This document shows positions 1 through 53,700 of a DNA stretch of 64,000 nt, piece after piece. Within the stretch, counting starts at the first letter, position 1. Every line of letters begins with the position of its first letter. The stretch lies in assembly GCF_026571515.1 (NCBI RefSeq), contig NW_026858743.1, positions 1-64,000 of the forward strand, read 5' to 3'. This DNA is from Ruditapes philippinarum. Lineage: Eukaryota. Below the pieces are notes generated by a model. The model worked only from the letters and a program-made list of their open reading frames with translations. It searched no databases and was not told where the DNA came from. The position numbers were made by a program, and so were the translations under genes.

Positions 1-737
1 CAAGGGAAAAGTAATGGTGAATGCTCATATGGATGTCTTGATAACTTTGTAGGAAGGCAATGCAATCAATGCATACTTGGCAAGTATGGGTAATGCATGC
101 AACAGTAACTGTCCTGTCAATTGTGACAGGAACGGTTGCTTTAAAGAGTCCGGAAGTTGTATTAATTGCAATCAAAACTTTGCTGGAGAGACATGTGAAA
201 ACTGTGCTGTTGGTTTTCATGGTTCATTTTGCTCTGAGAGATGCCCAACTTATTGTTTGGACGATGTATGTGATAGAGATACAGGGACGTGCTCTGGTGG
301 CTGTTTCAACAATTATTCAGGTGACAGATGTTGTATAAGTAATAACAACTGTATCACATGTTTGTCAGATACAAGGTGTAAACAATGTAAGTCTGGATAC
401 TTCAATGACCAATGTGACAAACTATGTCCACAGAATTGTCTAAAGTCCTGTCATATCGAATCAGGTATATGTGACGGTTGCAACGGTAACTTTTATGGTG
501 ATAGTTGCAATTTTTCATGTGCCTCTACATGCAACATTCAAACAACAGGCGGAAGTTTATGTCAGCAAAGTAATGGAAAGTGCCTATATGGATGCGTAGA
601 TGGTTTCCATGGTTTACAATGTTCTGAGAAATGTTCTGTTTATTGCAACGATACAATTTGTAAGCAAGACAACGGCAAATGTACAAAAGGATGCAAAATG
701 AAAGTAAAAAATGACCCCATTTGCCCTCTGACATCAG
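1..737 (+). CDS. Receptor copy A: 3' part of the large EGF-like ectodomain exon (5' end outside window); apparent +1 frameshift at GGG 88-90
   Basis: Frame 1 reads QGKSNGECSYGCLDNFVGRQCNQCILGKYG then TAA (91-93); frame 2 continues GNACNSNCP...ICPLTS, colinear with copy B. Exon ends ACATCAG|GCAAGA, homologous to ACACCAG|GTAAGA in copy B. Confidence 0.85.
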
Positions 738-1136
738 GCAAGATTTATTCAAAACAGCTCGTTTTTTTTCACCATTCGTGATATATATGCTTTTCATTTT
801 TAGCTATGCTATCTGGTAATGTCATATTATGTCTCCTCTGTATATTTGGAATGATGATGATGTTGCTGTTTCCGCTGCAAATGATGATAAAAATAATGTT
901 AACGATTATGATTTTAATGATAAAAATAATTTAAGTGCCTGCGACAACAATTATACCCGTGTTTATGTATAGAATAAAAATACAATATGTAAAAGCCAAT
1001 TAAAAGCAAGACATTTGATTAAATTTTATGTATTGATGAATTTATAGTGATATACTTATGTACTTACTTTTTTAATATGTCTTAAAGTATGTAGCACTCT
1101 TCAATTTTTAAGGTATGATAATCGTGTTATTTTTAG

Positions 1137-1260
1137 ACTCAAGTTCCTCAGAGCAGTCAGCAACTACAACTGCTGTATCACTTGGAACATTTCTTGCTGT
1201 GGCAGTAGTTGTTAACATCATATTTGTGGTTACGTTGATTCTCCGGAAATATCGTAAAAG
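1137..1260 (+). CDS. Receptor copy A: transmembrane exon
   Basis: ttttag|...AG|gtaaag, 124 nt, phase 1-2; DSSSSEQSATTTAVSLGTFLAVAVVVNIIFVVTLILRKYRKR (hydrophobic helix plus basic stop-transfer); same length in copy B. Confidence 0.9.
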
Positions 1261-1374
1261 GTAAAGATTGTTAATATATTCAACTGAATTAAAGTCCAAG
1301 ATAGAACTTATACTGTAAAAATACTATACAATATATGAATTATGTCAAAATTCTAAAATCTTTTTGCCTTCTGA

Positions 1375-2060
1375 GTTCAACTTTTAAAAAAAATGAAGAA
1401 AGAATCGAAACTATTGTCATGACCCTCTCGTTAATTTCGCCGTCGGAAACCGTTAAACCTAGTAACTAGTTCGAACTTGGTATACATTTTTTTTTGTCAT
1501 GAACATGATGAATGAACACAATTTTAAAGGTCATTTCTATTGTTTTTGCAAAGTTATGTCTCTTTTTCAACTTTTTAGCCCTGATTTTATCCCTGATTAA
1601 CCTTTTTTGCGAAGGTCTATTTTCGCAGACACTATAAAACTTCAGTCTTGTTTAATGTGTACAGGGCAGATAATCCCAGAATTGATATTTCGAAAGTTAT
1701 GTACTTTTTACTGTTTTTTTCTAAGGTCACTTTCTGAAAAACTGTCAAACTTGTTGCATTTTTAAATTGGAATTCATTTCTAAAGTACATGTAATTCTAT
1801 TGTTTTTTCTTAGTAATACCCCCTCCCCCACTTTTTATCTCTGAATTTCTTGATTAACTTTTTGCTAAGTTACATTTCTCTTAAGCAATCAAAGATTTAA
1901 CTTAAACAATTTTAACTTAAGAGTACTATCAAATTTAAAATACATTTGTAGGAGTGAGATAATCCCGAAAGCCTGTTTATGGTTCTTTCAAAATACGATG
2001 TTAAAAAGCAACACATCATTATATTTTTATTAGCTTTTTACTTCCGCGTATTTAGAATCA
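1375..2060 (+). mobile_element. Degenerate HINE/DINE-like (non-autonomous Helentron) remnant in intron
   Basis: Short inverted repeat head, CGTCGG microsatellite remnant and decayed internal repeats (AAAGTTATGT recurs); shorter remnant at ~37410-37570 in copy B. Confidence 0.4.
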
Positions 2061-2194
2061 CTTGTATCCATTATATTTTCTTGTCAACATAAATATTTTA
2101 CAACAGTTTTTGAGTACTGAATACATGTTGTATTTATAAATGACAAGTCAAATGATCTAAAACAAATAAGTCCAATATTTCATTTTTATTACAG

Positions 2195-2241
2195 GGTCAA
2201 TGATACTTACAAGGCAAAAGGACCTGTTTATGAAAACTCAG
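2195..2241 (+). CDS. Receptor copy A: cytoplasmic micro-exon 1 (VNDTYKAKGPVYENS)
   Basis: ttacag|...G|gtaaat, 47 nt, phase 2-1, in frame, conserved at 37692-37738. Confidence 0.85.
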
Positions 2242-2379
2242 GTAAATATATACTAGTTCTTATTTTTTACTGCTAGATGATGTTTTTTCATTAAGAATTT
2301 TATGTTCTTCATATCAATTTTTATCATATTTATTTAAGCTCGATTGCGAAACAAGTTCTTGCACTAATGTCAATTATTT

Positions 2380-2515
2380 TAGAGTCCGCTTCCTAGAACC
2401 AACCAGTAATTATTATGTTGTCATATAAAACACGGGTTGTAACCTGAGTAGGGCTCGAACACATGATCCCTGGATTAAGAGGCCTACACCTTAACCACTA
2501 GACCTAAGCTCCACT
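2380..2515 (-). mobile_element. tRNA-derived SINE remnant
   Basis: gggctcgaac (B-box, reverse) and accttaaccactaga (A-box, reverse); orthologous copy at ~37870-37995; related + strand copy at ~33250-33370. Confidence 0.65.
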
Positions 2516-2599
2516 TATATCTCCATTTGCACGGTCAGTTCTTAATTAAATGATTTCCAATCTGAATCATAATATGTTCCTACCACTGAGTTTCAAGCG

Positions 2600-2760
2600 T
2601 AATAATTTAGATAAAATAGTATCATTATATTATTCAAATATCTTCAGTCGTAATTATTTTCAAGCTTAATTATTTAGATAAATAGTAGCATAATTATTCA
2701 ATTATTTTCAGTCGTTATAATTTAGATAAAATAGTAACACAATTGTTTAAATATTTTCAG
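2600..2760 (+). repeat. Three imperfect ~55-65 bp tandem copies of the splice-acceptor region
   Basis: atttagataaa(a)tagta...tt(t)cag occurs three times; single copy in paralog B. Confidence 0.7.
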
Positions 2761-2826
2761 GCATTGAAATGGAATGTGGGAATTCAGCAAATCCCGGCAG
2801 TGCAGGCAAGCATGGAATTGAACAAG
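2761..2826 (+). CDS. Receptor copy A: cytoplasmic micro-exon 2 (GIEMECGNSANPGSAGKHGIEQ)
   Basis: ttttcag|...AG|gtattt, 66 nt, phase 1-1, conserved at 38134-38199. Confidence 0.85.
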
Positions 2827-3273
2827 GTATTTCTTGTTGCTGTTTTCTAAATTTTTAATTTGCTTCTTCAGATCTTTCTGTGCATTTTATTTAAAATAAT
2901 CGTATATGTAATTACTAACAATTTCTTTCGTATCTATAATATCATGACATACCTAAATATTTTAAGGGTTTACGTTGATAATATTTAATTTTTGGCATTT
3001 AGAATATTTCAAATAAGATGTACATTCATGCTTTTTTGCATAACTGATTGTTCTGAAGTTAAAATGTTGTGCAAGCCCTTTAATCGCACGCAAGATAAAT
3101 TTACGGGTATTGTAAGTTGTTTTTGTTGTTGGTCTTGTTGTTTTTGTTACCATAATCAGCAGCATAACTTGTATATTTCAATCGCATTTTATAATCCTTT
3201 ATGTAGTCAATAACTAAAAAGTTGCATTGATATATTACAAGAATATCAGTATATAGAGAGGTTTATTTTTCAG

Positions 3274-3333
3274 CAACAAAGAGCGATCCTGTGTTAAAGT
3301 CACCTGACTATGAGGATCTTGGAAGAGTTCAAG
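3274..3333 (+). CDS. Receptor copy A: cytoplasmic micro-exon 3 (ATKSDPVLKSPDYEDLGRVQ), first half of ITAM
   Basis: tttttcag|...AG|gtaatt, 60 nt, phase 1-1, conserved at 38693-38752. Confidence 0.88.
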
Positions 3334-3485
3334 GTAATTGTGAATTAATTGTTCAGATCATAGTATTGTAAACACCTAAATAACTTAGTATCAATATATA
3401 AAATGTTTATATTATATAAACTTTTCGTCTACATTTTATTTGGTTTCATAATTCTGATATTTTTCTTTTCTTTTCGTGTTACAAG

Positions 3486-3535
3486 TATCTGAGCATGAAT
3501 ATGGAGAAATTCGTCAAGACACTCGATATCATTGA
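3486..3535 (+). CDS. Receptor copy A: last coding exon (VSEHEYGEIRQDTRYH*), second half of ITAM
   Basis: Polypyrimidine tract then acaag| acceptor; in frame to TGA 3533-3535; conserved at 38903-38943. Confidence 0.82.
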
Positions 3536-3839
3536 TGGACGTATAACAGTAAGCACACGCGGAAATAAATGATCATCAACAACAATGAACTGTTTTAAAA
3601 GAGTCAGACAGAGAACAGAGTAACAATTTAAATGATTAACAATAGACGACATTATATCAAACACAAAGTCATTCTTTATTGTATAGTGCTGAATATCTGT
3701 CTAATATTTTATGTGTTAAACACTATTGTAAATACTTTCTTAAAAAGCATTTAGAACATTTGACTGCATGTTGATATTTTGATGTCCGCACATTTGAAGG
3801 CAGAACAGTTCCATAAAACGGATGTCCATATTTACATAA

Positions 3840-4650
3840 AGAAAACTTGAAATTGAGATATACCTTTTTTAGTGAAACACCTACCAAATATTTTAAATAT
3901 ATGATCAAATTCAGAACTAGAAATCATAAACTACCGGTCGAAACTGGAAATTGGCATAGAAATCCAAATATAATAAATTTTGATGAATAAATGAACACGA
4001 CCCCTCTAATTATGTGATATACAAAAAACTTTGCATGTTCATAAAAATAACCTGAGAACAATATTGAACTAAATTATTATGTTAAACTTTGATAAATATT
4101 TTTGAATTCATTCGTTTTATTTTGTATGAATATTAAACTTTCTTCAGTCTATGTTAAAAGAATATTGTAAGATGTGTGAGTTACATTCTGGTAACCTCGT
4201 AAACATTGTAATATTGTAATGAAGAGTACCAACAGCAACATGCAAATTGAATAATGTAAATTTATATATGGAACCTTTAAAATATGTCAAGGTATAGAAA
4301 GTATGATGTCTTAATAAGATTATCTACCGTTTTGAATTAAAGTTATATTCAAATTGACCTTGTTATATTTTATTAATTTCGTGTAACATTTGAGCTATTT
4401 TTGTAGTGATTTGGTAGTCAAATTATATACAAAATTCGCTATGAGTTCAACTTCCTTGTTTTCTGTCTTCCTTTTTGACTCTCATGAGTATTTGGCAATA
4501 TTTATAATAATTTCTGTTACTATAATTGTCTGTAAAATTGTGTAATGTTGAAACTTGTATTGTATCATACTTCTGTATGTGTCTTTGTGGTAAGAAACAA
4601 CATCATTACGTTACCAAATAAAATATTTGAATGTTGAATCTTGAATCTTA
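3840..4650 (+). mobile_element. LINE 3' remnant downstream of copy A stop
   Basis: Translates KFRTRNHKLPVETGNWHR (LINE C-terminal H.LP.ETG.W motif); ends AATAAA plus TTGAATC repeats. Confidence 0.55.
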
Positions 4651-4689
4651 AGTTTAGACAAGGGCGCGCATTTTAGTAAAACCACCAAG

Positions 4690-4782
4690 GTTTCGTAAGC
4701 TAGCCGGTTAGCTTCCTTAACATGAAAAAATTCCAAAGTCTCCGGTGGGATTCGAACTTACAGCGGTGAGAGTGCAAGTGAT
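4690..4782 (-). mobile_element. tRNA-derived SINE fragment (paralog ~40260-40350)
   Basis: ggtgggattcgaactt = reverse B-box GTTCGAATCC. Confidence 0.5.
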
Positions 4783-5289
4783 ATATTTATGAAATAAAGA
4801 AAAACTCTGCTTAAATTTCATGACCTCTCTATCCTAACAAAGTGTATTAAAAACAAGTTTTTCATAATTACGTCAAGTGTCGTAAAAGAGTAACTGTCGA
4901 GTGTTACCAAGTATTTAGCATAAGTGGTCATTTAATATTAAAAAGCCATCGCATTTATCTTTTCCATTGAGTCATATTTTTAAGTAGTTTACATAGAAAC
5001 AAACTATGTATCGATGTTTTTTAATCAGATAACAAAGGACAAAATCTATGCTAATTTATTTATTTACTTATTTATTTTTTTTATTTTTTTATTTATTTAT
5101 GTATTTACAATTAAGTTAGAAATTTGTATATAACAAAGTTAAAATGGCAACTAAGTCAAAAAAACTTACAAAAACATTATCACATACATAAGGAGTGTGT
5201 TGACAAAAAAATAATTGTTTAAATATACAATGAAAATACCGAAATACAAAGAAATAATATATAAAAGAAATACAATCACTCAAGGTATT

Positions 5290-6250
5290 AAATTTTTGTG
5301 CATCAAAATGTCTTTGCATCCCATAAAAACATATGCATGGTAATTGGTTCTTCAAAAAAGGTGAAGAAATGTAATCCTCTCCTACTGAAAGTAAATGATA
5401 CAACTCTTGAAAATGTTACAGTTCAAAAGTGAGTTGGGCATTTATGTAGATAATACATTATACTGGCATTATCAAATTGACTCTGTTTGCAAAGAACTAA
5501 ATACAAAAATAATTGCCCTCTTCAAACATATCATTTTTGAGCGCTTACTGACGAAATAAAAAAGATATATTACAACGCGTACATCCTTCGTGTGCTTGAT
5601 TATTGTTGTATGGTATAGGGAAAGGACACATACTCATACATCTATAAAGTAAAACTCAATTCAAAAAAATAGCTGCAAAAAATATACTTAATAGACCGAT
5701 ACGTTCACCAACGTTAGATCTTTTTAATAAACTTAAATGGCTGAAATTCAATTTCAGAGTGAAATACCCATACAGCAATTATGGTGTATAAATCTTTAAG
5801 AAAGATCTGGCACCGTTATATATGAGTGAAGTTTTTAGTTTCTCTCACAATGAATAACATAATTTACGCTCAATCGTTCATAAAGATATTGTTCTGCAAA
5901 GAAGACCTCATACAAATTATTTAAAGAATTTATTTTCTTATATTCCAGTATTGACGTTTGGAATAAATTACCTTTTACTATCAAACAATGTTCAACTTTA
6001 CAATCTTCAAAAAAAACTTTAAAATTTATTTATGATAAAATTGACCATTTATACTTAAATTGCTGTAAATGTTGATATCATCATTTTTCACCTTTGTTTA
6101 ATCATTACGAGTTTATTCTATAATTACTATAATTAATATGAGTGTCAGTCGGATTAATGAATAAAAATATCTAACCTTTACATTCAATATATATACATGA
6201 TATTTTATTATTATTATTAATATTATTAATATTTATTATTATTATTATTA
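5290..6250 (+). mobile_element. CR1/L2-type LINE 3' remnant
   Basis: LGIYVDNTL.WHYQID...YYNAYIL.VLDYCC.V RT C-terminal motifs with stops/frameshifts; (ATT)n tail; paralog at 41010-42110. Confidence 0.75.
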
Positions 6251-7139
6251 CTTTAAGTATTTTCATTAAGGCAAGGGAAATGGGCCCTTGTAAGGAAAAT
6301 GAAGTCACGCGTACTACTGCGCACAAAACAAAAAGAAATTACAGCTTATAGTTATTATTGCTGTGAAAATTTATCATTTTAGCGCAGTTATTGTAATTGA
6401 ATCAAGAAATATGCTTTAAAGAATAAGAAAAACAATACAGTTTTATGACCTTACGGAAACATGAAATAATACGTAGGGTACAAAAAAAATCGGCAAAGTT
6501 TTCAGTGATAAGTGATCTACTCTGAGTGATATGGGTTTTATCTCCAGATTTCAAAACCCATACTTTCCACTTATTAGCATAAACTATTACAACGACTTGA
6601 CACACTACATTTGAAATTACAACGCAAAATATTTTGACAAAATATAATATCACCTAATGTCTACATCGTGACTAATGCAGTAGGGGCTATTTTTGCCTAT
6701 TTTGGTTATGTATGTGAATTGTATGCAATATGTAAATTATCTTCCTTTAAAACACTGGTCAAAATATTTTAGTTTATAATACATTTTCTTTATTGTTATG
6801 AAAGATAAGTAGATAATAATTGATCTTGAGGCATGCTTGCTTCATCATGTTGAATGATTTAATTTCAAGGAATTTGTTTTCCCTCTTAATTTTATATAAA
6901 GCATGACAGGATTTCAACAACTTCAAGCCGTCTTACGCACTCAACCACTACCCACTTTGACAATTGTCACTCAATTTATACATTGTATACACTCCGGTCT
7001 CTCTCAAATATCGATGTACACAATGCTCAGTTATACTCCTGTTTGGAGTGTCCGTGGTATACATGTGTGTGATATTTTCCTTAATCTAAATTAAAGTGTA
7101 AATCTTCTACTGCAGCTGAAGTAAAACTGGAATAATTAG

Positions 7140-7502
7140 GAGCAGTAGTAGTAGAAGTAGAAGTAGCAGTGGCAGCAGAAATAGCAGTAGCAGAAGTAGT
7201 AGTAGTAGAAGAAGTAGCAGTAATNNNNNNNNNNNNNNNNNNNNNNNNNNNNNNNNNNNNNNNNNNNNNNNNNNNNNNNNNNNNNNNNNNNNNNNNNNNN
7301 NNNNNNNNNNNNNNNNNNNNNNNNNNNNNNNNNNNNNNNNNNNNNNNNNNNNNNNNNNNNNNNNNNNNNNNNNNNNNNNNNNNNNNNNNNNNNNNNNNNN
7401 NNNNNNNNNNNNNNNNNNNNNNNNNNNNNNNNNNNNNNGTAGTATTAGTTGTAGCAGTCACAGAAGCAGTAGCAGAAGAAGTAGAAGCAGCAGCAGTTGC
7501 AG
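7140..7502. repeat. (GTA/GCA/GAA)n microsatellite broken by assembly gaps (N at 7225-7438 and 7503-7690)
   Basis: Seen directly; ungapped paralog at 45060-45190. Confidence 0.9.
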
Positions 7503-8603
7503 NNNNNNNNNNNNNNNNNNNNNNNNNNNNNNNNNNNNNNNNNNNNNNNNNNNNNNNNNNNNNNNNNNNNNNNNNNNNNNNNNNNNNNNNNNNNNNNNNN
7601 NNNNNNNNNNNNNNNNNNNNNNNNNNNNNNNNNNNNNNNNNNNNNNNNNNNNNNNNNNNNNNNNNNNNNNNNNNNNNNNNNNNNNNNNNNTAACACGTAG
7701 GAAAATTCTCAGATGACAGAATGAGTAAAACATATATTCTGTAATATTTGACAGTAATGAAATAGCTGTAAATTCACACAACATGCTCGACTGTCATAAG
7801 AAAACCATAACATAATTTTCTCATCAAACATGTTCTTATGACATACTTATTATAAAAATAATATTTCGGGAAATTAACGTTATTTTGAAATATCTTGCAG
7901 TGTTGTCAGTGTAAAGACTTAATTTCTTTTCATATCATTGTTTTTAAATTAAGTTATTTATAATATTATTTTACATAATATTATGTAAAAATAATATTAT
8001 GTGTTACGTTAGTATATCGTCTGCTAAATTTTACTTTACGCACGATAAGTCGTGTGGTATTTTTCACGTAACGGTTCATCGAGTAAATATTGCTAGGTGT
8101 ATAGCGCGAGGTGTGAATATGCGTTTAAACCGGTTATAAGTTGGTGGTGTATAGAATAAATGTATTGATTATAAAAATAAAAATTCAATCAAAATATAAG
8201 TAAAGTAATTGTCAATTTAGGTGGACGCTCCTGTGAATAGGATATTAGTTGAATTAAAATAGAAACATTTTAAGGGTTTACTATAAAAGTTAAAAAACAA
8301 AATTAAATTTAATTTTATAGGATTAATTATAAAATAAAATATATAGTTATACTAAGTTGAAAACTTTATTCCAAGACCACTTGTAAAAAATATTGTGTTA
8401 AAAAAAAAAAGCTCTAAGTAAGAGTATCATAAAGGTCTGTTTGTTGTTAAAGTTTAACTATTTAAATTGTATGAACAATAATATAACAAATTTTTATTTA
8501 ATGTGATTTAACTTTAAATAACGTCTTTCTATGGTTAAAAGTTGAAGTAACAACTAAGATATAAAATTCATTTTGTTTTACTTATAAGTGTTATCATTTA
8601 AGT

Positions 8604-10393
8604 ATGGCTGAGGGAAATTTTACCGATATATATATAATTCAGAAAGTAGATATGGTCAGTACCCGTGTAATAGATACTACGGGGTTCGATGCTCAGAATA
8701 CGTCACGCACGAGAACTTTAACTTTAAACACACCTACATGTACTCCTGATGTAAGGTCTTTCATGAAACGGAAGGACACAAGTTAACACGCATTCTTCGT
8801 CCTAGGTATAGGGAAATTTTTCCATAATACTTCTTATGGGTCTGATTCATTTCTTGGTTCCCCTACTTTTAGACAAGAGTTTTAGTACTCCGAAAGTAAG
8901 ATTTAGTTCACACTCCCCTACTGTTCGGGGTGATTATTACGTATTTGGTGATAGTCATAGCTTACCCTTTGTATATACAGGAAGTGCTCGAGATGAAACT
9001 TAGATACGTCTATCCGTGGGTTAAAGGGACTGATTTTGAATAAAAAAGCCAGTGCTTTCCCCTTTAAAAAAACTGATTATACTGTTTCCTAATGTGACAG
9101 TTAGACATTATAGCTATATGAAGAGTTCACCCTTCTTTAGTGACCAAAGCGTAACATTAGTTAGCGTTACGTCACCGGTTATGGTTAATACATGCCAGAC
9201 ACCAGTGCCTCATACTTTATTCGAATCTTTATTCGCAAAGTGTTAGGTTTTCCGAGTAATTTTTATCTCGAGGAAACGCATTTATGCCTAGAACTTATAG
9301 TGCTCCGATGAACACTATGTTACTCGGTATTAACAAATACTCGGCCATTCTTCGTTTATGGAATATAAAGTCCCGATCATTTCGATGGTACTACTAGTGA
9401 ATGGTCCGATTATATTCATTTTGAGCAAGTAGCCAACTGGAATAGTTGGGATGATCAAACAAAAAAGCATGCATGTTAACAATTAATTTGCGGGGGGAGC
9501 ACAGCGATTACTGTCTACATTACACCCTTCTCAACTTGCAAGTTATTCGGAAATTAAACGTGTGCTAATGCAAAGATTTAGTCCACATGAACGTGAAGTT
9601 GCCTTTCGCTGTTGAATTCCGTAATCGGAAAAGAAAGCAAGGGGTATATCCGTTTTGGACTATGGTTATGCACTACGCAGATTAGCTCAAAAAGCATTTC
9701 CTTTAATGCACAGTGATGCTTTAGAAACACGTATTAATCGACCAATATATTCATGGATTAGGTACTTTTGAATTAAGAAAAGCACGTACAATTTACGCAA
9801 TCCTATTACTTTGGATCACGCAATTAGTGTTGCCGTAGAATTTATGTCATTAAACAGGGTTCGGTAGAATAAAATGAACAAAACCATTAGATGATGAAAA
9901 GGGAGTTAACTCGTCCATTGAATGCTATTCGTCAACATCAGTTGCGTCCCTTAGACCTACAAATTTTTAAAGACTGATTGTAGTTTAGACGAATTTAAGC
10001 AAAATGATGTCCTTCTCTATTTGATCAAAAAAGTTTGAGCAAAAATTTCAAGAAATGACTGATTCTTACAACAAAAAAAACATATGGAACTCAGTTTAGG
10101 CCAAATAATTCCTCAAGATTTTATCAAAAACACTGGTAATTGATAGGCCTTCAATGAGACGCAGTAAATAGCCCTACGCGTACCCCCACAACCAAGGTGT
10201 AAATTAATAAATATGGTTCTACTACAAACACCAATTATAACTCCCAGTCTAGAAATCATCAACATATGACACAGGGAAATTCTTTTTATGAGAAACCTAA
10301 CTTTAAAGACATACAGTGTACTTACTGTCATAAAAAGGTCACATTGAGAGCCGTTGTTTTGCTAAAAGAAATGCTTTGAATCAGGGAAACTAG
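8604..10393 (+). pseudogene. gag: Gypsy gag (frameshifted)
   Basis: ATG in strong context at 8604, capsid-like motifs, CTYCHKK(G)HIESRC knuckle needing a 1-nt correction, ends QGN-TAG. Confidence 0.75.
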
Positions 10394-10447
10394 GTCAGAC
10401 TGAGGTTGAGGCCAAAACGTCAGTCAGTTCTCAATTGGTTAGGCCTC
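10384..10447 (+). promoter_or_regulatory. -1 programmed ribosomal frameshift signal (G GGA AAC plus H-type pseudoknot)
   Basis: Slippery heptamer 10384-10390 just before the gag TAG; 7-nt spacer; stem 1 GACTGA 10398-10403 / TCAGTC 10420-10425; stem 2 GAGGCC 10408-10413 / GGCCTC 10442-10447. Confidence 0.75.
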
Positions 10448-13400
10448 TAGAATTCCAAAATGGACATATAAGTGAACCTCGTACACTTGTTCGTACTTAG
10501 TCACAATCTAAGGGAGATAACAATCTTACCAAAGTTTCTTTGCCTATAATCACGTATAGTTCAAATTTGAATTATAAAAACAAATCTAGTAAACAGTGTA
10601 TTCCAGAAATTATAGTTACACCCCCTCCAAATGATGTTAAAAATGACCAAAAGCTTATTTCTCTAGAAATTCCTAGTAAAATTGAAGGCCAAGAAGTAAT
10701 ACAACCCAAACTGGAAGTTATGGGTCAGAAAGTATATCGTTCTCAAAACGAAAGTGAAAGTAGACCTTTAGCTTTCAAAACTGAAAGTTGTCAAAAATCT
10801 GTCATTTCCGACCAAAACTTAATCAAACATAACTCTGGGAAAAGTGAATTAGTTTCAGAACTTAAAAATGTTGACAAAACTTCTTGTTATTATGTAAAAA
10901 GTAGACTTAGGTTTCTCTTAAGGAGGAATGTTAATTGATACTGGGGAACCCCAGTTTGTCTATTTTGTCAATGTTCATGCTATAAAAGGCTTCCAAGAAT
11001 AAACCCAAAACTAAGCTGGGCAAAAATACATTGTTATCACACAGTAAATTTGTGCCAAATTACAAGAATCAGAGACAATTACAATCCTGCTAGAGTAGAA
11101 ATGACTATTAATGCAACCATAAATGGTAATTGCTTAAACAGATATAATATACTAGACCCTACTCACATATTTCATAGATAAGGGTAAATTTTAGTGCTTC
11201 GATCTTTGATTGATACTGAAGAAAATAAGACAATTCTATCAGTTATGAATATAAATGATCAGCCTGTGAATTTGAAAACCCAAACATGGGGAGGGTCTTA
11301 CGCTCATTAACTGAAATTTCCGAAATTTTTCAAGAATTTAAAAATTCTAATTTTCTCAGTTAGATAAACTTTTTAAAAGACTGTGTTTTACCCACACATT
11401 TGGGGTCCTGTTTTTTGGTTTTTGGAAAAAAACCTGTATAAGGAAACAAAAAAATCAAGAGGTCAAAATCCCCTTTTAAACCCATTTTGAAGGGCATATT
11501 TTTCCGGTCCCCGAAAGGGAAAAGGGAAGGCCAAACAAATTTTTCTGAGCATTTTTTTTTTAACACTTTTTGGGTTTAAAAAACCCGTGCAATGAAAGGC
11601 TTTTGGAGAATCCCATATATTTACAAAGAAGGGGTTTAATTCCCGAGATTGACAAAAAATGTTAGAACAAGAAAGTCATAGAACCGTGTAAAATTTTCCC
11701 CTTGGGTGTTTAGGAAAAATTTTTTAGTTAGAAAAAAAGGGTAACAAATAAGAATTTTGGTTTTTAAACTTTAAAGGGGGTTTGAAACTTTAGCAACTAA
11801 AATTTTTATGCTTTCCCTTTTCCTTTGGATTGATGAAAAAAATTTGAAACCAATTTTTTTTCAAACAGGGGGGGATTTTTTCACTTTTTTAGATTTTGGC
11901 CAAACGGTTACTGGGAATTTTAAATTAAAAGGGGTAAAGGGCTCAAAATAAAACAAGTTTCCCGGATCCCGGGGAAGGGGCCCAAATTTTCTTTTTTAAA
12001 AATTATGCCCAAATTTCCGGTTTTAAAAAAATTTCCCCTGCATATTTTAGAGATTTTTTTGGAAAGCTTTTTCTTTTCCGGGTTTTTGGTTTTTAGAGAT
12101 GTTTTTGTGTAAACTTTGTGATTTTTTGTATTTTAAAAGGGGAAAAACAATTCAATGAAGCATAAAAAAAATTCTGTTTTTTGGGAAATTCAAAAAAGAA
12201 TTTTAAGAAATGCTAAAACCCTTTTAAAATTTAAAGTCAACTCAATGTAAACTGCTTTCAAAAGGAAGTTATATTTTTTAGGGCATAAAGTTTCTGCTAG
12301 TTGGTAATTACTTGTGAACCAATCAAAAAATAGAAAGTACACATATTGGCCAACCTCTACTAATGAAACATGAAAAGTTATGTCATGGCTAGGTATCTGT
12401 GGGTACTATAGGAAAATGATTCAAAAACTTTGCCGAAATCTCATTACCTCTAACGAGACTCACAAGAAAGAATGCTAAATTTAAATGGGATGTAAAGTGA
12501 AAATGAGGCATTTGAGAAATTATAAACTTGTCTTGTTAATCCTCCTATTTTGGCTTTTCCCTGAGGAAAATGGTAGTAAATTTATTTTGGATACTGACGC
12601 AAGCGCTGATTCTATATATCAGGAATAATTTCTCAAGTTCAAAATGGACAAGAAAAAGTGTTGGCTTATGGCAGTAAAATTCTTAACCCCCGCACAAAGA
12701 TATTATTGTACAAACAAAAAAGGGAGTTATTTGCTATAGTTCATTTCATACAACATTATAAACACTATAGGGGAAGAAATTTTTTGGTTCGCTCCGATCA
12801 TAAAAGTTTGACATATCTTCAAAAATTTAAGGAGCCTGAAGGAATTCTGGCACGTTGGATAAATATTCTTGGTGCCTATGAATTTGACATTGAATATAGG
12901 CAAGGTACAAAGCATTTAAATGCAGATAATCTTTCTAGAAAAATAAAAAGGCCATGCAAAATAACTAATTGTCAGGAGTTTGTTAGTACTTTTCAAAAAT
13001 CAAAAAATTATTGAAAGCAACAAGTATGTTAGCATAAACCCTATAGGTCAAGGTAATTCGCAATTACAATCTGACACGAATAAAAAATCTTGAACCAAAA
13101 CTGGTTGTTTCATTGGTCCAGTAAAGAATTACTTAAAAAGTTTTTAAAATTTAAAAGACATCTAAAATTTGTCTGAAATAATTTGGTTAAAAAGAGAAAT
13201 TTTTTAACAAAAAACCTAAAAAAAATCAGGCCCATTTAAATCTGCACGCAGATTTATTAAATTATGGCAAAAAAAAGGGAAAAACTTGAAAAAACCGTTA
13301 AACTTTTTATAATTAAAGAACTTTAAAGTCAAAATAAAGTTTATCAATTAGTAAACCCCTGAGGGAAATTAGGAAAATTTTATTTTTAAAGGGAAACTTC

Positions 13401-14650
13401 AAAGAACGAGATAGTCTGGCCATTTGGGACGAGAAACGGGAACTTAGAAAAGGGAAATTAAAAGTAGGGGTTTTTAAAATGGTTTTGTTATGGCTAATGA
13501 TACATAGCACTTTTGGGTTCGCCAGTGTGAAAGCTGTGCAAAAAGAAACCAGACCCTGGGAAAGGGAAATCTCACTTAAAACAAATTAAGGCTCATCGTC
13601 CTATGGAAATTTTAGCTATAGATATTTTGGTCCCTCTCCCTTTAACAAACCAGAATAATGAGTATATTATAGTCTGTGGGTGTTACTTTACTAAATGGAC
13701 AATGGCTTTTGCTGTTCCAAATCATACAGCTTATACTGTAGCGGATACCCTTATTACTCAGGTGTTTTTTACAATATGGGTTTCCTGCTCAAATACATAC
13801 AGATCAGGGGAGAGAATTCGAGTCTCAATTATTTTCAAGTTTGTGTTCCTTATTAGATATTGATAAGACTAGGACTTGTCCTTATAACCCGAAATCGGAC
13901 GGGATGATTGAACGTGCTAATAAGACTATAGTGCAGATGTTATCTCATTTTGTTTCCCTTATAGAAAATCAAACAGACTGGGATGACCATCTGTGTTATG
14001 TCTTAGCAGCCTATCGTTCTACACAACATAAAAGTATGGGTTGTACCCCAAATTTACTTATGTTAGGGAATGAGTTGGATTGTCCTATTGATTTAATGGT
14101 AGGACTTCCACTATATACTACAGAAGTAGAATGTCCAATTGAATATGTTCAATGGGTGAAAACTTCTTTGAGACAATCATATGAATTTGCTTTTGACCAA
14201 TTGAATATAGCTGCTAGTAGGCAGAAGAAGTACTATGAAAGAGATTTAAAACCTAGGGAATTTTTAAATGGATACTGGGTTTGGAGATGGTATCCATCCT
14301 CTGTAAATAAAAAATTGAAACAAGGTTGGATAGGCCCATATCTCGTTTTGAGAAAAATTACATATTTGACTTATAAAATTCAGAAGTCTGAGGATTCTAA
14401 TCCTATTCCGGTTCATGTAGATCACTTGAAAATTTATGAGGGAAAAATGCCCCTAGCAATTGGTTAAGGGCAAATCAATATGTAAATTTGGAGTCTGAAT
14501 CTCCTAATCAAATGTTATGTTCTGAAAATGAAAATACAAATGTTCAAATTAATTCAGATGATTGAAAAGAATAAAAACAAAGAAATTCCTTTTGTACCAA
14601 GGTCTAGGCGTGAAAGACAAATAAAACCCAGAGAAATATTATCAATGTAG
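10394..14650 (+). pseudogene. pol: Gypsy pol (protease, RT, RNase H, integrase), fragmented
   Basis: ORF-track fragments 12658-13014 (RNase H) and 13603-14467 (integrase core, GWIGPY); domain order PR-RT-RH-IN. Confidence 0.88.
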
Positions 14651-15178
14651 GGTTTTTACTTAAGCACACGGTGCTTAATCATTTAGCTGTCAACAATTAA
14701 GACATAAGGCTTAATTATAGTACATAATCTGTAAATAAGTGGGTTCAGCAATTAAAGTTGCTTTTAGGAAATTAAATGATATCAATCATACTAGTTGATA
14801 TAATTATATAATATGACATTTTTGTTGTATACATGTTTTTTACATGACCTAGAACTATGTAGAATGTAAATATTTCTATTTAACTTTATTAAAATTAAAA
14901 GAAATATGAACACAGGATTGATTGTGTTTTATTAAGATAATTGTGCTTAAAGAACTGTTACATATGTAAGAGTTAATGTTAGCAAATGTAAATATTAGGG
15001 TTCAATGCTTAGTGTTAATTAAAATAGGAATATTTTCCTATGATTAAGAGTAATTTCATGAAGTATTGATTGATTGTTATTGTTTATGTACTATATACAT
15101 GATATAATGATCATTTATTTGTTTTTTCAATATTTCAGTTTGTAATCAATTTCTACAATACATTATCATTGATCAAGT

Positions 15179-15729
15179 ATGGCTGATAGACCTATACGGC
15201 CACGTCAGGGGGCATGCTGCCCAGTGCCAAACTGCAGGACAGATACCTTTTTTACCAAGTATAATGACTTTGCGAAACATTGGTCGAACAGGCACATCTA
15301 CATGAGGACAGTCTTTGTCTGTGTAACTTGTATAAAAGTATTGACACGAAAGTATGATGCTAAAAGACACAATTCTTCAGCCGGGAAAGCTCATGTTTGT
15401 TAAGAAGAGAGGGCAGTCAACCCTACATATCGAGATCCAGGTCAATGCCAGGAAATTTGTTTACCCTGACTTGGCAGGAACGGCAGAGAAGGCCTGAGGA
15501 GGATCAAAGACAGGCTGATCAGGAAAGAAGGAAAAGAGAGGAGGAGGAATTGAGAAGGGTACAGGAAAGGGAGGAGCGAAAAGAAAGAGACAGACCGGAG
15601 AGACAGGCACGGGCACAGAATGAGATTTTGGACAACTGGTACAACAGGAATGTTGAGCTAAAATTATCTTGGAAAGAATTTTACAGTCTTAAAAATTTCC
15701 ATTTCAAAACCCCAAGCAAAACTATATAA
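15179..15729 (+). pseudogene. Accessory ORF in env position: two C2H2-type zinc fingers followed by an R/E-rich coiled coil
   Basis: CPVPNC...HWSNRH and CVTC...KRH...AH; reads in frame through one TAA (15401-15403) into EERAVNPTYRDPG; charged helix in a shifted frame; splice acceptor tatttcag at 15131-15138. Confidence 0.6.
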
Positions 15730-16161
15730 AAATTTAAAATTGGTGAAAATTTGGGGTTTTACATTTGGGTTTTTATTTTTGGTTGGTTTTTTTAAAAAGG
15801 GTTGGGTTAATAATTCCTTGTTTAAATTTTTTTAATTAAAAAAAGTTTTTTTTAATAATCATTTCATTTCAGGGGTGGGGACTTATTTTTGTTTTTTAAT
15901 AAGTTTTTTTGAAATAAAGTTCTGAACAAAAAAAATTCTTCATTGAAGAAATTTTTGATTGCTTTTATTTAAAAATTTTTTATGTTTACCTTTTATCCGT
16001 ACAAATTTTGATATAAATTTATTTGTTAAAATATCTAAAATCTAAATTTTTTGGGGTAAAAATAAAACCCTTTTTTTTTCCCCTTTTAAAAGTTAAATAC
16101 TACCTTTTAAATTTTTTTTGGTATTCCTTTTTTTTGAACCCACACGTTTTTTTAAATTTTT

Positions 16162-17096
16162 AAAGGAAAAGGGGGAATGTAATAAAAACCATATTTTGAT
16201 AAAATAATTTTAGTTATCAATTTCAAAAACATTCAATTTGTTTTGTCCCCAAATTTTTTGGGTTCCTTTTTCCCCCAAAAGTTTAAACTTGTTAAAGTCC
16301 CTTTGATTGGCCTTTTTGATTTAGATTTAGATTTTTATTGGTCCACTTGAAATTTAAAAAAATTCGAAATTTGTTCCCGAAAATTTTTTTATGAAATAAA
16401 TTTTTTACTTTTCAGTCCTTTTAGTTAAGCATTTGGGCAAAAGACTAACCAAAAAGGGGGATAAAATACCGGGTGAATTTTTTTATTAAAAATCTTTTTC
16501 TTGGGGCTGGCCGACAGGTCAGTTCAATTCAAAATCCTTTAAAAAGCTTTTGGGGACTCTTTCAAAAACTTAATAGTTTTTTAAAATCTCTTTTAAATCT
16601 AATATTTGAAGAATTTAGGCTAAACTTTTTTAAAAAAATACTTAGAAAAATTTTTTTTAAAAAAAATCACTTCGTTGGGTTTGGTAGAAATTTTGCTTAA
16701 AATTATATAGTCTTTTTCAATTTTCTTTTTTTTTAATAAAATTTTTACGAATTTTTCGTTTTTAAAAAAAGTCTTTGGAAATTTTTCCCTTTTAATAAAA
16801 ACCCCGTAAAAAGTTAAAATTTAAAAGTCCCTTTGTTATAAAATTAAACTTAATAAGAGTAAATTTTAAAAGGGAGCGTCCTAAAAACCACCATTTCCCA
16901 GCCACTGGTTGGCAATTAAGAGTTCAGAGGGAAACCCGGGGAAAGTTTCCGTTTTAAAGATATATTTGTGACACCGAAGGGCGTCCGTATAGTAATTTTT
17001 TTCCATTTTATTTTTAGTCTTTTCCAAATGTGGCCAAATGAGTGTTGGGCCGGGAAACAAATTGAACCACTTTATAAATAAACCGGCACTATTACA
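16162..17096 (+). repeat. Polypurine tract (16162-16177) and putative 3' LTR (16178-17096)
   Basis: AAAGGAAAAGGGGGAA immediately followed by TGTAATA; perfect inverted terminus TATTACA at 17090-17096; interior is low quality. Confidence 0.6.
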
Positions 17097-29040: not shown

Positions 29041-29849
29041 GGCCGGGTTGCATTTGTACACCAAATATCATGAGGCTGTGATGTTACGAAAAAAAATTTC
29101 CATTGACCCATTAATGTCGAAAATTTAATTCAGTAGGTAAACAGGAAGTGGATTAGCTACACACCTAAAATCAAATCCCACCGTATGGGACCATGTGTCA
29201 ATGCTGTATGCCAAATATCAAGAGGCTGTGATTAGTAGTTTCTGAGAAAAATGTTACGAAAATTTCCTACCATTGACCATTAATGTGAACAGGAAGTGGA
29301 TGAGCGACAGACTTGAAATCGAATCCCACAGTATGGGACCATGTGTCAATGCTGCATGCCAAATATCAAGAGGCTGTGATAAGTAGTAACTGAGAAAACT
29401 GTTACGAAAATTTCCTACCATTGACCTTTAATGTCGAAAAATCTAACTAATTTAACTAAGTGGATAAACAGGAAGTGGATGAGCGACAGACCTTAAATCA
29501 AATCCAACGGTATGGGACAATGTGCCAATGCTGTATGCCAAATATCAAGAGACTGTGATACGTAGTTGTTGAGAAAACTGTTACGAAAATTTCCTACCAT
29601 TGACCATTAATGTCAAAAAATCTAACTAATTTAACTAAGTGGATAAACAGGAAGTGGATGAGGAAAGACCTGAAATCGAATCCCACGGTATGGGACCGTG
29701 TGTTAATGCTGTATACCAAATATCAAGAGGCTGTGAAACGTAGTTGTTGAGAAAACTGTTACGAATTTTTTTCCCCGCCGCCCACCGCCCGCCGCCCGAC
29801 ATTCACCATACTATAACCCGGGTTTGCACCTGTGCAACCCGGCCAAAAA
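29041..29849 (-). mobile_element. HINE-like element with ~179-bp tandem array
   Basis: SubTIRs GGCCGGGTTGCA (29041) / TGCAACCCGGCC (29833-29844), adjacent inverted repeat, CCGC microsatellite, four AGGAAGTGGA-containing units. Confidence 0.75.
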
Positions 29850-31005
29850 TAGAAAAAGTGGATATTAAAAGTAGTCAATCATTTCTTGTTGTTCTTAATT
29901 TTATATAACTTTTTACAGTGTAGCATTTGAAAGCATAAAATTAAAATTTCGCTACAGTTACATATAGAACCCAGAACAGTTACATATAGAACCCAGAAAT
30001 GAGTGAACTAGTGTATGTTACATAGCATATCTTAATCATTGTATATTAAACACTTTTTGAAGTTTATAAATCACAAACATCTAGCCTTGGAAGAATTATG
30101 GAACGCCGTGACTGTCTTCTGTGGTTATTGCTTTTTCTTTCTTGGCAGAATAATAAGGCCTACGGAAATAAGTGATCTCAGGTGTTTTTGCTGGTTACAA
30201 TGGATTCAAATATAACATAATTATACATTAATTTATATTACACAGTTTGTGTTGTATTTTCCTTGATAATTATTGATAAAAATTATTTTCTCGAAACCGC
30301 TTCTAAAATTACAACTTAATTCATAACGACAAAATGACTTCATCAATGCATGCCATTGTAAAGCACACGTCTCATCTCACACCCCAAGCCAGATCAAAAT
30401 CCGGACATTTAAAACATTTAAAAATCTGCAGATGAATCGGGACATTTCGTTATGTCCTAAATTTACTAAATATATATATAAACATTTACTCAATGTTGAT
30501 TGCAATATAATTCCACTAGCTAACTTGATTAAGAATATACATTTTAACATTCGGTTAAATACATTAAATTCAAGGACCTTTGGACCGTAAATATAGAAGC
30601 AAAGATTACAATTTATTTCCTTAAGACTATTTAATTTCCAACTGTCTCTGTTGGTCTTAATTCGGTCTTTGCAGTATTTATTGATTTGTGTCGGTCTATG
30701 TCGGTCTCTGCAATTTTAGTATGATCCCCTTTAACCTTGTTACACCTAGCCGATTATTCTTAATAAGAACTTATCCGGAGACTATCGGAAATAGCCGATA
30801 TGTTGCTCAGAAATTGTTAATGGTCCGTCATTTGAACAAACAAAACTTCAACAGCTGCAACATAACCTCTCGCATGTTTCTTTTTAAAGAAGAAAACTTG
30901 TTTTCATCAGGACTTGGAATTTCTTTTAAAAGAAATAAAAGCATACAATACCCTGATTCGTATATGTAGCTGTAAACTTACGTACATTATTATTATGTTA
31001 TTTGC

Positions 31006-31012
31006 TATATAA
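31006..31012 (+). promoter_or_regulatory. Candidate TATA box of receptor copy B
   Basis: TATATAA ~90 nt upstream of the candidate start codon; weak evidence in AT-rich DNA. Confidence 0.25.
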
Positions 31013-31099
31013 TATGAAAATGATTTTGTTTTGGAAAAGTCATCATGTGGAAAGGTTTACAGATTTTGTTTACAGAAAGAATTTCAAATCAAAGAATTG

Positions 31100-31114
31100 A
31101 TGACGTTTATCGAG
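31100..31114 (+). CDS. Copy B candidate first coding exon (MTFIE)
   Basis: ATG ACG TTT ATC GAG|gtaggt: strong phase-0 donor that completes a signal peptide with the next exon; 2.6 kb upstream, so uncertain. Confidence 0.55.
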
Positions 31115-34100
31115 GTAGGTCTGGTAGTAGCATACTGTTAATAATGATCTCTTGGGCATATCATTTCTTTATCTTGTATGGGTGCGTCATACTCTCATTT
31201 TATTAACAATGTCACTGAATAAATCTTCACTTGAAAATTCCCTCGGAAATTTACATTGTATAACATCGCCTATTAAATTTATCCCTTCACATTTAGAGTT
31301 CATAAAATTAATAATTTGATAATTATTTTAATAATATGCCTTTATTTATTCAATATGTTGCAAACCAGAGTTATACTATGGTGAATGTCGGGCGGCTGGC
31401 GGACGGGAAAAATTTCGTTACATTTTTCTCTGCATTTACTTATCACTATGTAAGGGTATTAACGCAAAAATAAATTCCATCTTGCTTTCTTACGTTACAC
31501 CGTGCTTTCTAACTTGTACATCTTGTATTCTGACTTGTACATCTTGCATTCTGACTTGTACATCTTGCATTCTAACAGTTACATGTTGCTTTCTTACATG
31601 CTCATTATGCTTTCTGCTGTGTGCGTCTTGCTTAACTGTATGTTGATATCATTATTTAATGATCAATTATTATTCTTTTGTTGATCTAGTATACTAATTC
31701 AATAACTTAACCTGCAACTGTTTGTATTTGGGTTTATTTACTCAGATTGAATGACGAATGTCATAAGGTAGAATGACGTATAGCCGAAAGCCGAATGCAG
31801 CAAGCATAATACGACGCGACATCTGGTGTATTAATATGTGACACCCAAATTATGCTAACAGGTGGCGCTACAGTTATATTCTCGGTAAAGTCCGTATTGC
31901 GGTTCGGATTCAGTTTACCAAGTTACGTCCCTTTGTTTTAAAATTTCCATTTCCACTATGGAGCAAATAAGGTAAACATATATACAAAACGATTTAACCA
32001 ATTTTTGTATTTATTACTGAAACTGTGTGGGTCAAATTATATTTCCAGCTGACAATGACAAGTTGCACATTTCCAAATCAATGATTTTAGAATTATTTTT
32101 TTATCAACAAAATAATTATAAAATAGAACAGTTGTTCAAAGTGCTTGGGTATGGAAGGTGATCGATATTCCGGATACTCGTATATTTTCGGTAATTTCCG
32201 TATGGTTCCGTACATGTTTCCGAACTTGCGCCCTCTGTCGTAAAAAAGAGTGTAGTTTGCAACCTGCCTTGTTGTATTGCACACAGTGCGTGCTTCAATG
32301 TAATATTTATACATTAATAATCGATTAACTTAGGTTTCCTTTTTGTACACATTAAATGTAGACAGTTTACGATTATTATAATTAAACTGAACTTATTTTA
32401 GCATCAAACATAAAACATTAACGTAGACAGATTTGAAGTCAAATAACGAACGATCCATGCAATTTAAAGCAAAATGTGCAAGTCATAATGCAAGATGTGC
32501 AAGCCAGAATGCATTGTGTGCATGTCACAATGCAAAATGTTATAGTAAAAATCCAAGATGTACAAGTCAGAAAGCACAGTGTAACGTAAGAAGGCAAGAT
32601 ATAATTTTTGCGTTAATACCCTTCCATATATCACATAAATTTTCGACATTTATGGTCAATGGTAGGAAATTTTCGTAACAGTTTTCTCAGCAACTAGTTA
32701 TCACAGCCTTTTAATATATGACATACAGTATTGACACATGGTCACATACTGTGGGGTTCGATTCAGGTCTGTTGTTCATCCACTTCCAGTTAACTGGGAA
32801 ATTTTCTCAGCAACTTCTTAAAACAGCTTCTTGATATTTGGTATACACCATTAACATGTGGTTTCATACCTTGGGGTAGAAGTTCAGGTATGTTGCCCAT
32901 CCACTTCCTGTTTACCGACATAGTCAAATTTCGAGTGTATGGTACAAACGCTTTGTAGATCAGAATTGTGATTTTTATTTCATTAATTCAAATTTATGGT
33001 ATCCAATTTTCAGTTATTTTTATCTTCAAGTTATTTCTTCATTTGTAAATATGATAAACTGATATCAAAACTCTAGAATTTCAATAAATTACAAGTAAGG
33101 TAAATTAGAATCCCCAGACACACGTTTCATTACAATATAATATTTTCAATGAACAGATATGTCATTAGTTTATAAGTCTTAATTACAAATTCGATAATAC
33201 AATGATAAACATGAAGGTTAAAAACATCTAAACTTCAACGTGAGACGGATGCTTAGCAATTAGGTTAATTCCTCTCAACCCAGGGGTCGTAGGTACAAAC
33301 CCTTCTTGGGTCATAGTTATGTTATCATATCCTACACCATACCTGGCTTATTCTAGGAAGCGGTTTTATATTAGTTCAAATATGTACAAGGCCCTAAATA
33401 ATTTTTAAACTGAAGGGAAAGTAAACAAATGTTATAGATGTTATGAGGAAAATATGTTGAAGCTATTTACCATGGTTTATTATTTAATGTTGTTCGCATT
33501 GAAGAGGGATCAAATCAAAAGTCAAATGAATATATTTAGTTTCAATTTTTTAATTTAAAATAATTTACAGAACCTATTCAATTTTGGTAACTGTTTAAAA
33601 GATTGTAACAAACCACACTTGTTTCAATTCAAAGAATACCGTTACTTATTATCAATTTGTATGGCTTAACTAAACTTAGAAAAGAAGTACATGTAATGTT
33701 TTATTTGTGACGTTGCATAATATATATTTCAGATATTGTATGTATGGTGTATATGGTTAAATGTTAGCAACAACCTGGTAGAAGGAGGTAACTAAATTTA
33801 CATCAGTCTTTATTACAGATAATGTGGTATTTATCTTTGTTAATGGAAAACGTATTTATTCAAGTTAAAAGAAAATAAATATACATGCAGCACGAAAAGG
33901 TGTTGGTAGTGTTACTGAAATATTGTTTTTCTTTCCCGTTATAGAGATTGATGAACAATGTAAAGTAGGTTGTGTATGTTGTATAAATAGAAAATGTGCA
34001 CGGGGAAAATGGTTTTCTAACGAATGTACTCAAGGCTGTATTGATGGTCATAGATCTGCTCGATGTTATGAACTATGTACACACAATTGTACAAAATGCC

Positions 34101-53183: not shown

Positions 53184-53497
53184 AGCTTATTTCAAGTCTA
53201 TTCCATCTCTGTGCACAGTTGCTAAATACTTTTAAAATCAGAATTCCGGTTAGTCGTAATCTCTATCACCACAATGTTCTCTAAATTGATAAAAAGATTT
53301 CAAGATTCCATTTCGTGAGAATTAACTAGTACATCTACATGTTAATTTAGCTTATGTCAAGTCTATTCCGTCTCTGTTCACATTTGATAAATACTTTTAA
53401 AATCAGAATTCATGGCATCGGTAAGTTGAACAATGTTCTCTATATGGATTTTTTAATTAGATTTCAAGATTGCATTACAGGAAAATTAACTAGTACA
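53184..53497. repeat. Local ~165-bp tandem duplication specific to unit B
   Basis: agcttat.tcaagtctattcc...aattaactagtaca occurs twice; single copy at ~24599-24762. Confidence 0.75.
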
Positions 53498-53700
53498 GCT
53501 TCAGCCGATAAGTCCCGTCGTACGGAACTCTCTATCGCGATATTTTGATATTATACTATATTAAATTTACAAACTGTTAATATAAAGAAAAAAATACATT
53601 TTTGATGATAACATTGTAAATTTTGATAATGGTATCCTGCATGAAAAATGGTACCAGTCATCGGTGTATAACATTTTCACCATGTCGTCCTATTTCTTGC

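Follow-up and report, generated by a model that had tools for sequence, protein, structure and literature searches.

A third gene with paired C2H2 zinc fingers, probably expressed by splicing, between integrase and the 3′ LTR of Gypsy elements in Ruditapes philippinarum

Gypsy elements in the genome of the clam Ruditapes philippinarum carry, downstream of pol and in the place where env would be expected, a real third gene, ORF3, that is encoded by the element and is under purifying selection. The gene is predicted to specify a pair of C2H2 zinc fingers followed by a long helix, is likely to be expressed by splicing, and apparently belongs to a family that has not been described before. We present here the anatomy of one degraded copy, the family to which it belongs, the evidence on splicing, and the possible functions of the protein.

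The element in the window

The window, that is, the whole stretch of DNA analysed, comprises 64 kb of R. philippinarum contig NW_026858743.1 on the forward strand, and all coordinates refer to it. It contains a 5′-truncated, frame-broken copy of a Gypsy element with the following features.

8000..8603, +: remnant of the 5′ leader; the blastn match to a full-length sister copy starts at 8000
8604..10400, +: gag region from the ATG at 8604, colinear with the sister copy, with many frameshifts; end approximate
10501..14650, +: pol region, broken, with a tail to 14650 (Pfam matches, ORF list)
12610..13014, +: RNase H (Pfam RT_RNaseH)
13531..14467, +: integrase (Pfam rve and Integrase_p58_C)
15111..15138, +: pyrimidine tract and splice acceptor, AG at 15137-15138 (from sequence)
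15179..15403, +: first part of ORF3, with a PxWP motif and two fingers, stopping at an in-frame TAA (translation, alignment)
15404..15442, +: conserved strand and N-x-x-Y-x-x-P-G motif of ORF3, in the frame of the fingers
15448..15660, +: R/E-rich helix and acidic-aromatic tail of ORF3, in another frame in this copy (tblastn)
16162..16177, +: polypurine tract (PPT; from sequence)
16178..17096, +: 3′ LTR (TG...CA), noisy, 74-82% like the LTR region of the sister copy
16515..16523, +: donor-like CAG/GTCAGT about 50 bases past the TATA box, a candidate donor if in a 5′ LTR
16965..16987, +: degraded TTGTGATC-N7/8-GTCCG LTR motif (comparison with subfamily LTRs)

The element starts at about 8000 in this copy and the 5′ LTR and primer-binding site (PBS) are absent, so that the copy lacks both a promoter and a 5′ donor. 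Within pol, RNase H precedes integrase, the order of Gypsy elements (Metaviridae); protease- and RT-like sequence was recognized by eye upstream of RNase H in related copies, and the gag frame is open only in one of these (L064). Full-length sister copies have LTR pairs (TG...CA) that are 98-99% alike, a PPT and a TGGTGCC PBS, which we take to be a match to tRNA-His, and five of the six examined are flanked by 4-bp target duplications. These characters identify the element as a Gypsy/Metaviridae LTR retrotransposon. ORF3 lies inside such LTR pairs, as expected if, as an earlier note on this DNA had supposed, it is encoded by the element. No tRNA genes were found in the 64-kb window.

In the window, ORF3 begins with an ATG at 15179, and the acceptor-like sequence TATTTCAG, with its T-rich tract, lies at 15131-15138. 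Finger 1 has the form C-x4-C-x14-H-x4-H (15218-15295) and finger 2 the form C-x2-C-x12-H-x7-H (15320-15394). The two-finger ORF that the earlier note had placed between integrase and the PPT is thus present in the sequence, as is the NPTYRDPG segment (15419-15442) that it had seen in frame after a single TAA (15401-15403). The R/E-rich helix that it assigned to the same ORF is also present, but it lies in another frame from about 15448, which constitutes a second break. Interrupted twice, the window copy cannot make a full ORF3 protein and is not a working gene.

Over long stretches, 30-42 gap events per 500 bases separate the window copy from the sister copy, with 3 in 15000-15499. Gaps of homopolymer type are dense at 11000-12500, 13000-13500 and 15500-17000. 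The high gap density probably reflects assembly noise or poorly polished sequence. Elsewhere in the window, there are two copies of a dispersed repeat about 5 kb long (96-5380 and 34944-41092; ungapped blocks 82-92% alike), and tandem arrays with a period of about 160-180 bases occupy 29121-32931, 53177-54957 and 62233-63163, the first of them having inverted copies 3 kb away.

The ORF3 family and its product

Searches of the same genome returned at least 12 matches to ORF3 at the DNA level and at least 64 at the protein level, falling in at least eight subfamilies: A-G, with 20-43% identity to A, and H, which was added from the integrase side. About 10 kb around 50 of the 64 matches was taken for locus analysis. 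The order in the family is integrase, acceptor, ATG, ORF3, PPT, LTR, and a same-strand integrase lies upstream of ORF3 in 28 of the 50 loci; eight of the remaining 22 have ORF3 between the LTR pairs of internally deleted elements, and the last 14 are fragments or of unclear context.

An uninterrupted ATG-to-stop ORF3 of 147-168 codons is present in 12 of the 50 loci, and two open copies are 95% identical to that of the window. We calculated dN/dS (Nei-Gojobori) among 26 copies that are a selection, chosen for an open frame and in some cases cut before a frameshift. Of 30 pairs, which are not independent, eight were saturated at synonymous sites. In 20 of the 22 unsaturated pairs dN/dS was 0.04-0.29 (Fisher p<0.05), and the other two were not significant (0.83 and 0.47). 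Across 19 copies, whose identity to the first ranges from 20 to 99%, six Cys/His columns do not vary. Frame integrity and dN/dS below 1 in other copies are the test that the earlier note had proposed, and the invariant columns together with dN/dS far below 1 mark ORF3 as more than a chance reading frame.

Several side observations concern the loci themselves. LTR-bounded loci without integrase or most of pol (L068, L070, L071, L078, L051, L067, L081 and L085) have kept ORF3, mostly open, and L070 and L071 have only ORF3 and the LTR region in common. The motif TTGTGATC-N7/8-GTCCG is shared by the otherwise dissimilar LTRs of subfamilies A, B1, B2 and E, is partly present in C and F and is not found in D (LTR 3′ ends of L044, L051, L067, L071 and the window compared). 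One contig (C3504; L022, L024, L025, L029-L033) holds about ten 5′-truncated ORF3 fragments, several of them about 1.1 kb apart, with no integrase nearby. AAGTATGGCTGA is found at just two sites in the 64 kb, the starts of gag (8600) and ORF3 (15175). The gag-like start context described in the earlier note is indeed nearly repeated in subfamily A, where 20 of 34 letters agree, but agreement falls to 13-14 of 34 in B1, B2 and E; we reject it as a conserved signal and regard it as a quirk of the lineage or chance.

The 99-residue core of an open copy was modelled with high confidence (pLDDT 95, pTM 0.78), with helices at 28-39 and 58-68 (pLDDT above 90) and strands at 42-48 and 74-80; a long R/E-rich helix (98-162) follows in a model of an open copy. 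The core is predicted to be a C2H2 pair, with two Cys and two His per finger in a hairpin-helix fold, although the model pairs the two strands into a compact unit unlike solved C2H2 arrays. The ligands of finger 1 are invariant in 83 of 83 sequences, and the Cys, Cys and first His of finger 2 are kept in 90% or more. The second His of finger 2 stands at the usual +5 column in 51 of 61 family members; in the subfamily of the window a G takes its place and the next His is at +8.

ORF3 misses the Pfam zf-C2H2 cut-off (14 bits against 25.2 for L043, which passes no Pfam cut-off); this profile is matched at E up to 0.5 by 13 of 19 members, the best at 1.4e-4. The best profile matches in the PDB are DNA-binding C2H2 arrays of natural proteins (Tramtrack 2drp, EGR1 and CTCF; E down to 2e-7), and the same arrays give the best, although weak, fold matches (Z 3.7-4.1, top rows at rmsd 4-7 Å). 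Foldseek gave no match at E up to 0.001 against the PDB and viral models, a first structure search having been filled by the long helix, and in the ESM Atlas ORF3 matched only unnamed or generic C2H2 clusters.

The remaining features were scored in 61 ORF3 proteins. HW or HF follows the finger 1 His in 58, and N-x-x-[YF]-x-x-P is nearly fixed (N in 60, P in 55); a TGEKP-type linker is absent from the alignment. The helix of finger 2 has R at -1 in 27, N or D at +3 in 22 and R or K at +6 in 32, the pattern of DNA-reading fingers, and the recognition positions of finger 1 are small or mixed. By criteria of our own, a basic cluster lies past the core in 44 proteins, and a 20-residue acidic-aromatic window, of the kind known from acidic activators, is found in 30, as against 10.2 expected from shuffled sequences; 31 fail this test. 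In 29 of these 30 proteins the acidic-aromatic stretch is terminal; the subfamily of the window copy has it at the C-terminus, many others at the N-terminus. In subfamily A, the Arg residues of the helix are largely paired with Glu. No protein has a 19-residue segment with mean hydropathy above 1.6 (the maximum for L043 is 0.6), in keeping with the earlier note's view that ORF3 is not env.

We examined 70 of 152 integrase matches, the top 30 and 40 hand-picked from further down the list. A tree of 69 rows made by a quick method, from which two short rows were left out and to which one from scallop was added, places subfamilies A-D and F-H in one 31-row clade (SH-aLRT 99), in which E is not labelled. 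The clade includes the integrase of a Pecten (scallop) gene model, P0079, a pol/integrase protein that ends in the finger module of ORF3, so that the suggested linkage to Gypsy pol extends to another mollusc. Re-examination of clade members first scored as lacking ORF3 revealed it 1.6-1.8 kb downstream in three and beyond an insertion in one more; five break off or are interrupted, and two reach the PPT with no match to the profile.

Against 1.84 billion representative proteins, the ORF3 profile gave 256 matches at E up to 1e-10. Among the best 149, 98 are of 260 residues or fewer, and 72 of these contain the whole module. Among 30 matches looked up, those with named sources come from clam, scallop, oyster, freshwater mussel and abalone; one oyster protein is a homologue. 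Word-based homologue searches with the family alignment gave three and three proteins, the longer being generic zinc fingers, and a metagenome scan gave one weak locus. Giant host-like proteins of 2,000-4,700 residues (P0004-P0012, P0017) have up to 21 copies of the module; many sit on contigs of 0.2-90 Mb, and the genes of two are neighbours in a freshwater mussel. In abalone, one protein (P0139) joins the module to RRM domains. In a module tree (FastTree, 76 rows) some host repeats group with subfamilies E and G (0.94), the direction of transfer not being given by the tree. A public gene model (P0003) splices family integrase to sequence from the region of ORF3 with the frame shifted, and is an example of an element mis-annotated as a host gene.

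More distant Gypsy elements show a related arrangement. Among 38 such loci (L154-L191; 30-45% integrase identity), a sense C2H2-type ORF, defined by a loose pattern, lies within 1.5 kb past integrase in 30, as against 4 of 38 in the antisense control. The fingers are in frame with pol, at the integrase tail, in 10 of the 38, these 10 forming a sister integrase clade (SH-aLRT 100), and YAG precedes the finger Met by 1-22 bases in all nine in-frame loci examined. Some other distant finger ORFs appear to start directly at an acceptor and to lack an ATG, which would fit splicing to a coding exon further upstream. As none of the distant ORFs exceeds 18 bits against the ORF3 profile (16 for the in-frame fingers), a common origin with ORF3 is not established.

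Splicing to the ORF3 acceptor

The polypyrimidine tract and acceptor reported in the earlier note are present in the sequence, and an acceptor recurs across the family. YAG precedes the ORF3 ATG in eight of eight subfamilies, at 1-9 bases in seven and at 40 bases in A, and the acceptor is pyrimidine-rich (14 or more of 20) in four of the eight, compared with three of 149 control ATGs. In sequencing run X7, a 1,202-base contig departs from the sister-copy element exactly at the predicted acceptor. Past the joint, it matches 19 genomic places, and GT comes next in 10 of 10 examined; the donor exon closes a stretch of repetitive coding sequence that has no relation to the element. The acceptor is therefore likely to be functional, having trapped a neighbouring transcript in this run. 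A few letters are common to both sides of the joint, so that the contig is possibly a chimera, and the RNA nature of the run is a guess. The donor exon is multi-copy (L111-L120) and encodes a heptad-like repeat; Rfam gave no matches on four of its loci.

The earlier note had proposed a subgenomic mRNA. Use of the acceptor is borne out once, with a donor outside the element, but seven runs (X21, X23, X1 and X2 for the whole element; X2, X4, X5 and X7 at the acceptor) yielded no junction with the 5′ end of the element itself. These runs are weak material for splicing: the contigs are guessed to be RNA, the raw reads of X21 look like DNA and X23 gave seven reads. The loose ends in X21 begin or end with GATC, which suggests ligation-type DNA data. 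Contigs of X1, X2, X4 and X5 cross the acceptor unspliced, and one X2 contig ends 2 bases past it. A joint in X1 (3765-8085) was rejected as a splice, as it lacks GT-AG ends, and is read as a deletion. No spliced genomic retrocopies joining leader to acceptor were evident in the 32 loci mapped.

The best donor candidate is located in the LTR just past the TATA box, not in the leader. Its distance from the TATA box is 51-55 bases in subfamilies A, B1, B2, C, E and G. In three of the eight subfamilies, the mutually related A, B2 and C, no other GT site of the LTR scores as well, the region considered for the donor having been chosen after looking. The donor GTCAGT overlaps TCAGT, presumably an initiator-like sequence. 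A first exon of about 20 bases would easily escape notice, and the resulting message would lack the PBS, with which the absence of evident spliced retrocopies would fit. We consider that ORF3 is likely to be expressed by splicing.

Possible functions and comparison with known systems

We favour the view, for which we judge the chances to be even, that ORF3 is a DNA-binding transactivator of the element's own LTR promoter. Transcription would start about 30 bases past the TATA box, and a short first exon ending at the donor about 50 bases past it would be joined to the ORF3 acceptor, giving an mRNA without the PBS and from it a nuclear protein of 150-170 residues. The finger pair would read LTR DNA, the basic helix may serve nuclear import or make an extra DNA contact, and the acidic-aromatic end might recruit co-activators; activation would then feed back positively on copies of the same subfamily or shield them from silencing. 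We prefer this reading mainly because an acidic end that moves between termini stands beside a fixed finger pair. The DNA-binding nature of the top profile and fold matches, the DNA-reading pattern of finger 2 and the enrichment of acidic-aromatic termini speak for it; the lack of a canonical linker, the failure to find a binding site and the half of the family that fails the acidic test speak against it. The earlier note had thought of a possible regulator or anti-silencing factor; the anatomy of the protein seems to favour a DNA-binding activator.

The fusion of the module to RRMs in P0139 also speaks against this reading, as it points to RNA. It would better suit an export factor like Rev or CERV, a spliced product that would bring unspliced genomic RNA out of the nucleus by binding to it, which we regard as possible, if rather unlikely. 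Such a factor would share its position and spliced origin with CERV of the Caenorhabditis elegans element Cer1, as far as the parts of PMC10309623 available to us describe it. A strong internal acceptor obliges the element to export intron-containing RNA, the modelled helix is Arg-rich, and hydrophobic spacing at the C-terminus can be read by eye as an export signal. Nevertheless, ORF3 has neither the size (165 against 517 residues) nor the domains of CERV, the helix of finger 2 looks suited to DNA, and the Glu pairing in subfamily A leaves few of the helix Arg free.

A role in directing or tethering integration, like that of the chromodomain at the integrase end of chromoviruses, is suggested by the fingers in frame with the integrase tail in the sister clade. 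We think this improbable: the YAG before the finger Met in those loci suggests that their fingers too are separately spliced, and they resemble the ORF3 profile little. Slightly more improbable still is a self-repressor that limits the element, or a decoy that titrates a silencing factor of the host. Two DNA-binding fingers carrying a long helix might act as a block no less than as an activator, and the giant multi-module proteins could be the factors mimicked; the enriched acidic-aromatic termini argue otherwise. That ORF3 is a useless passenger, a captured host exon or unrelated insertion, might be suspected from the occurrence of the module in host-like multi-repeat proteins and from the broken state of the window copy. 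This reading is largely refuted, and we give it hardly any weight: all subfamilies of the clade have ORF3 in one and the same position, synonymous sites are saturated when subfamilies are compared with each other, dN/dS is about 0.1 within them, and the same link of pol to fingers is found in the scallop gene model.

The usual view of animal LTR retrotransposons is of gag-pol(-env) elements that depend on host transcription factors, with C2H2 fingers as a host weapon against them; a conserved and selected C2H2 gene inside many Gypsy lineages reverses this picture. It is possible, though less likely than not, that a large part of mollusc Gypsy diversity consists of 'complex' retrotransposons with a spliced C2H2 transcription factor in the env slot and a module exchanged with the host, where it makes up the giant multi-repeat proteins. 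Such elements would be a mobile source of zinc-finger domains. ORF3 is in any case a small, testable protein for studying element activity under silencing. Two warnings follow for bivalve annotation: many 'uncharacterized zinc-finger genes' are element genes, and the ORF3 acceptor can trap transcripts of neighbours.

The ORF3 family appears to be undescribed. We found no account of a C2H2 ORF3 in Gypsy in the open literature available to us, including the accessible parts of PMC12440569, PMC10968565, PMC10886601, PMC11011659 and PMC6431247; Repbase, subscription journals or supplements may annotate one. Mollusc surveys, among them one that names the Gypsy clades C, AB, CsRN1 and MolGy1-16 (PMC6238403), make no mention of such an ORF in the parts covered (PMC6238403, PMC10294476, PMC8905726).

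Other elements do carry genes in this position. The env of errantiviruses and some sORF2/FAST-like proteins occupy the same post-pol slot according to the portions consulted of PMC13524379 and PMC11952523, but these are membrane proteins; as none of the 61 ORF3 proteins has a membrane anchor or transmembrane segment, we reject identity both with an env-bearing errantivirus and with a sORF2/FAST-like fusogen. Bdelloid rotifer Gypsy elements likewise have an extra ORF past pol, typically made from spliced messages, but in the accessible text of PMC5408684 these are GDSL esterases, DEDDy exonucleases, or coiled-coil or TM proteins, unlike the C2H2 ORF3, and 'zinc' and 'C2H2' are absent from that main text. 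Among spliced regulatory genes in this slot CERV comes closest; according to PMC10309623 it shares exons with gag, contains H, M and G domains and perhaps a C4 finger, and has no homologues outside nematodes. Compared by description, ORF3 differs in having its own ATG after the acceptor, only 147-168 codons in open copies (150-170 residues), and a C2H2 pair plus one helix, and we reject identity with CERV. From Tramtrack, EGR1 and CTCF it differs in lacking the canonical linker and in its added PxWP, HW and N-x-x-Y-x-x-P motifs.

For function, our models come from elsewhere. Tas of foamy viruses is an element-encoded DNA-binding protein that raises expression of its own element. Tas and the plant protein VANC belong to other element classes, and neither is known to have a C2H2 pair. 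VANC acts on its own element in the same manner (PMC12859917, in the part available). The likeness of ORF3 to both is one of function, with no homology claimed; if our reading is correct, the elements described here would be an animal counterpart of Tas/VANC self-activation.
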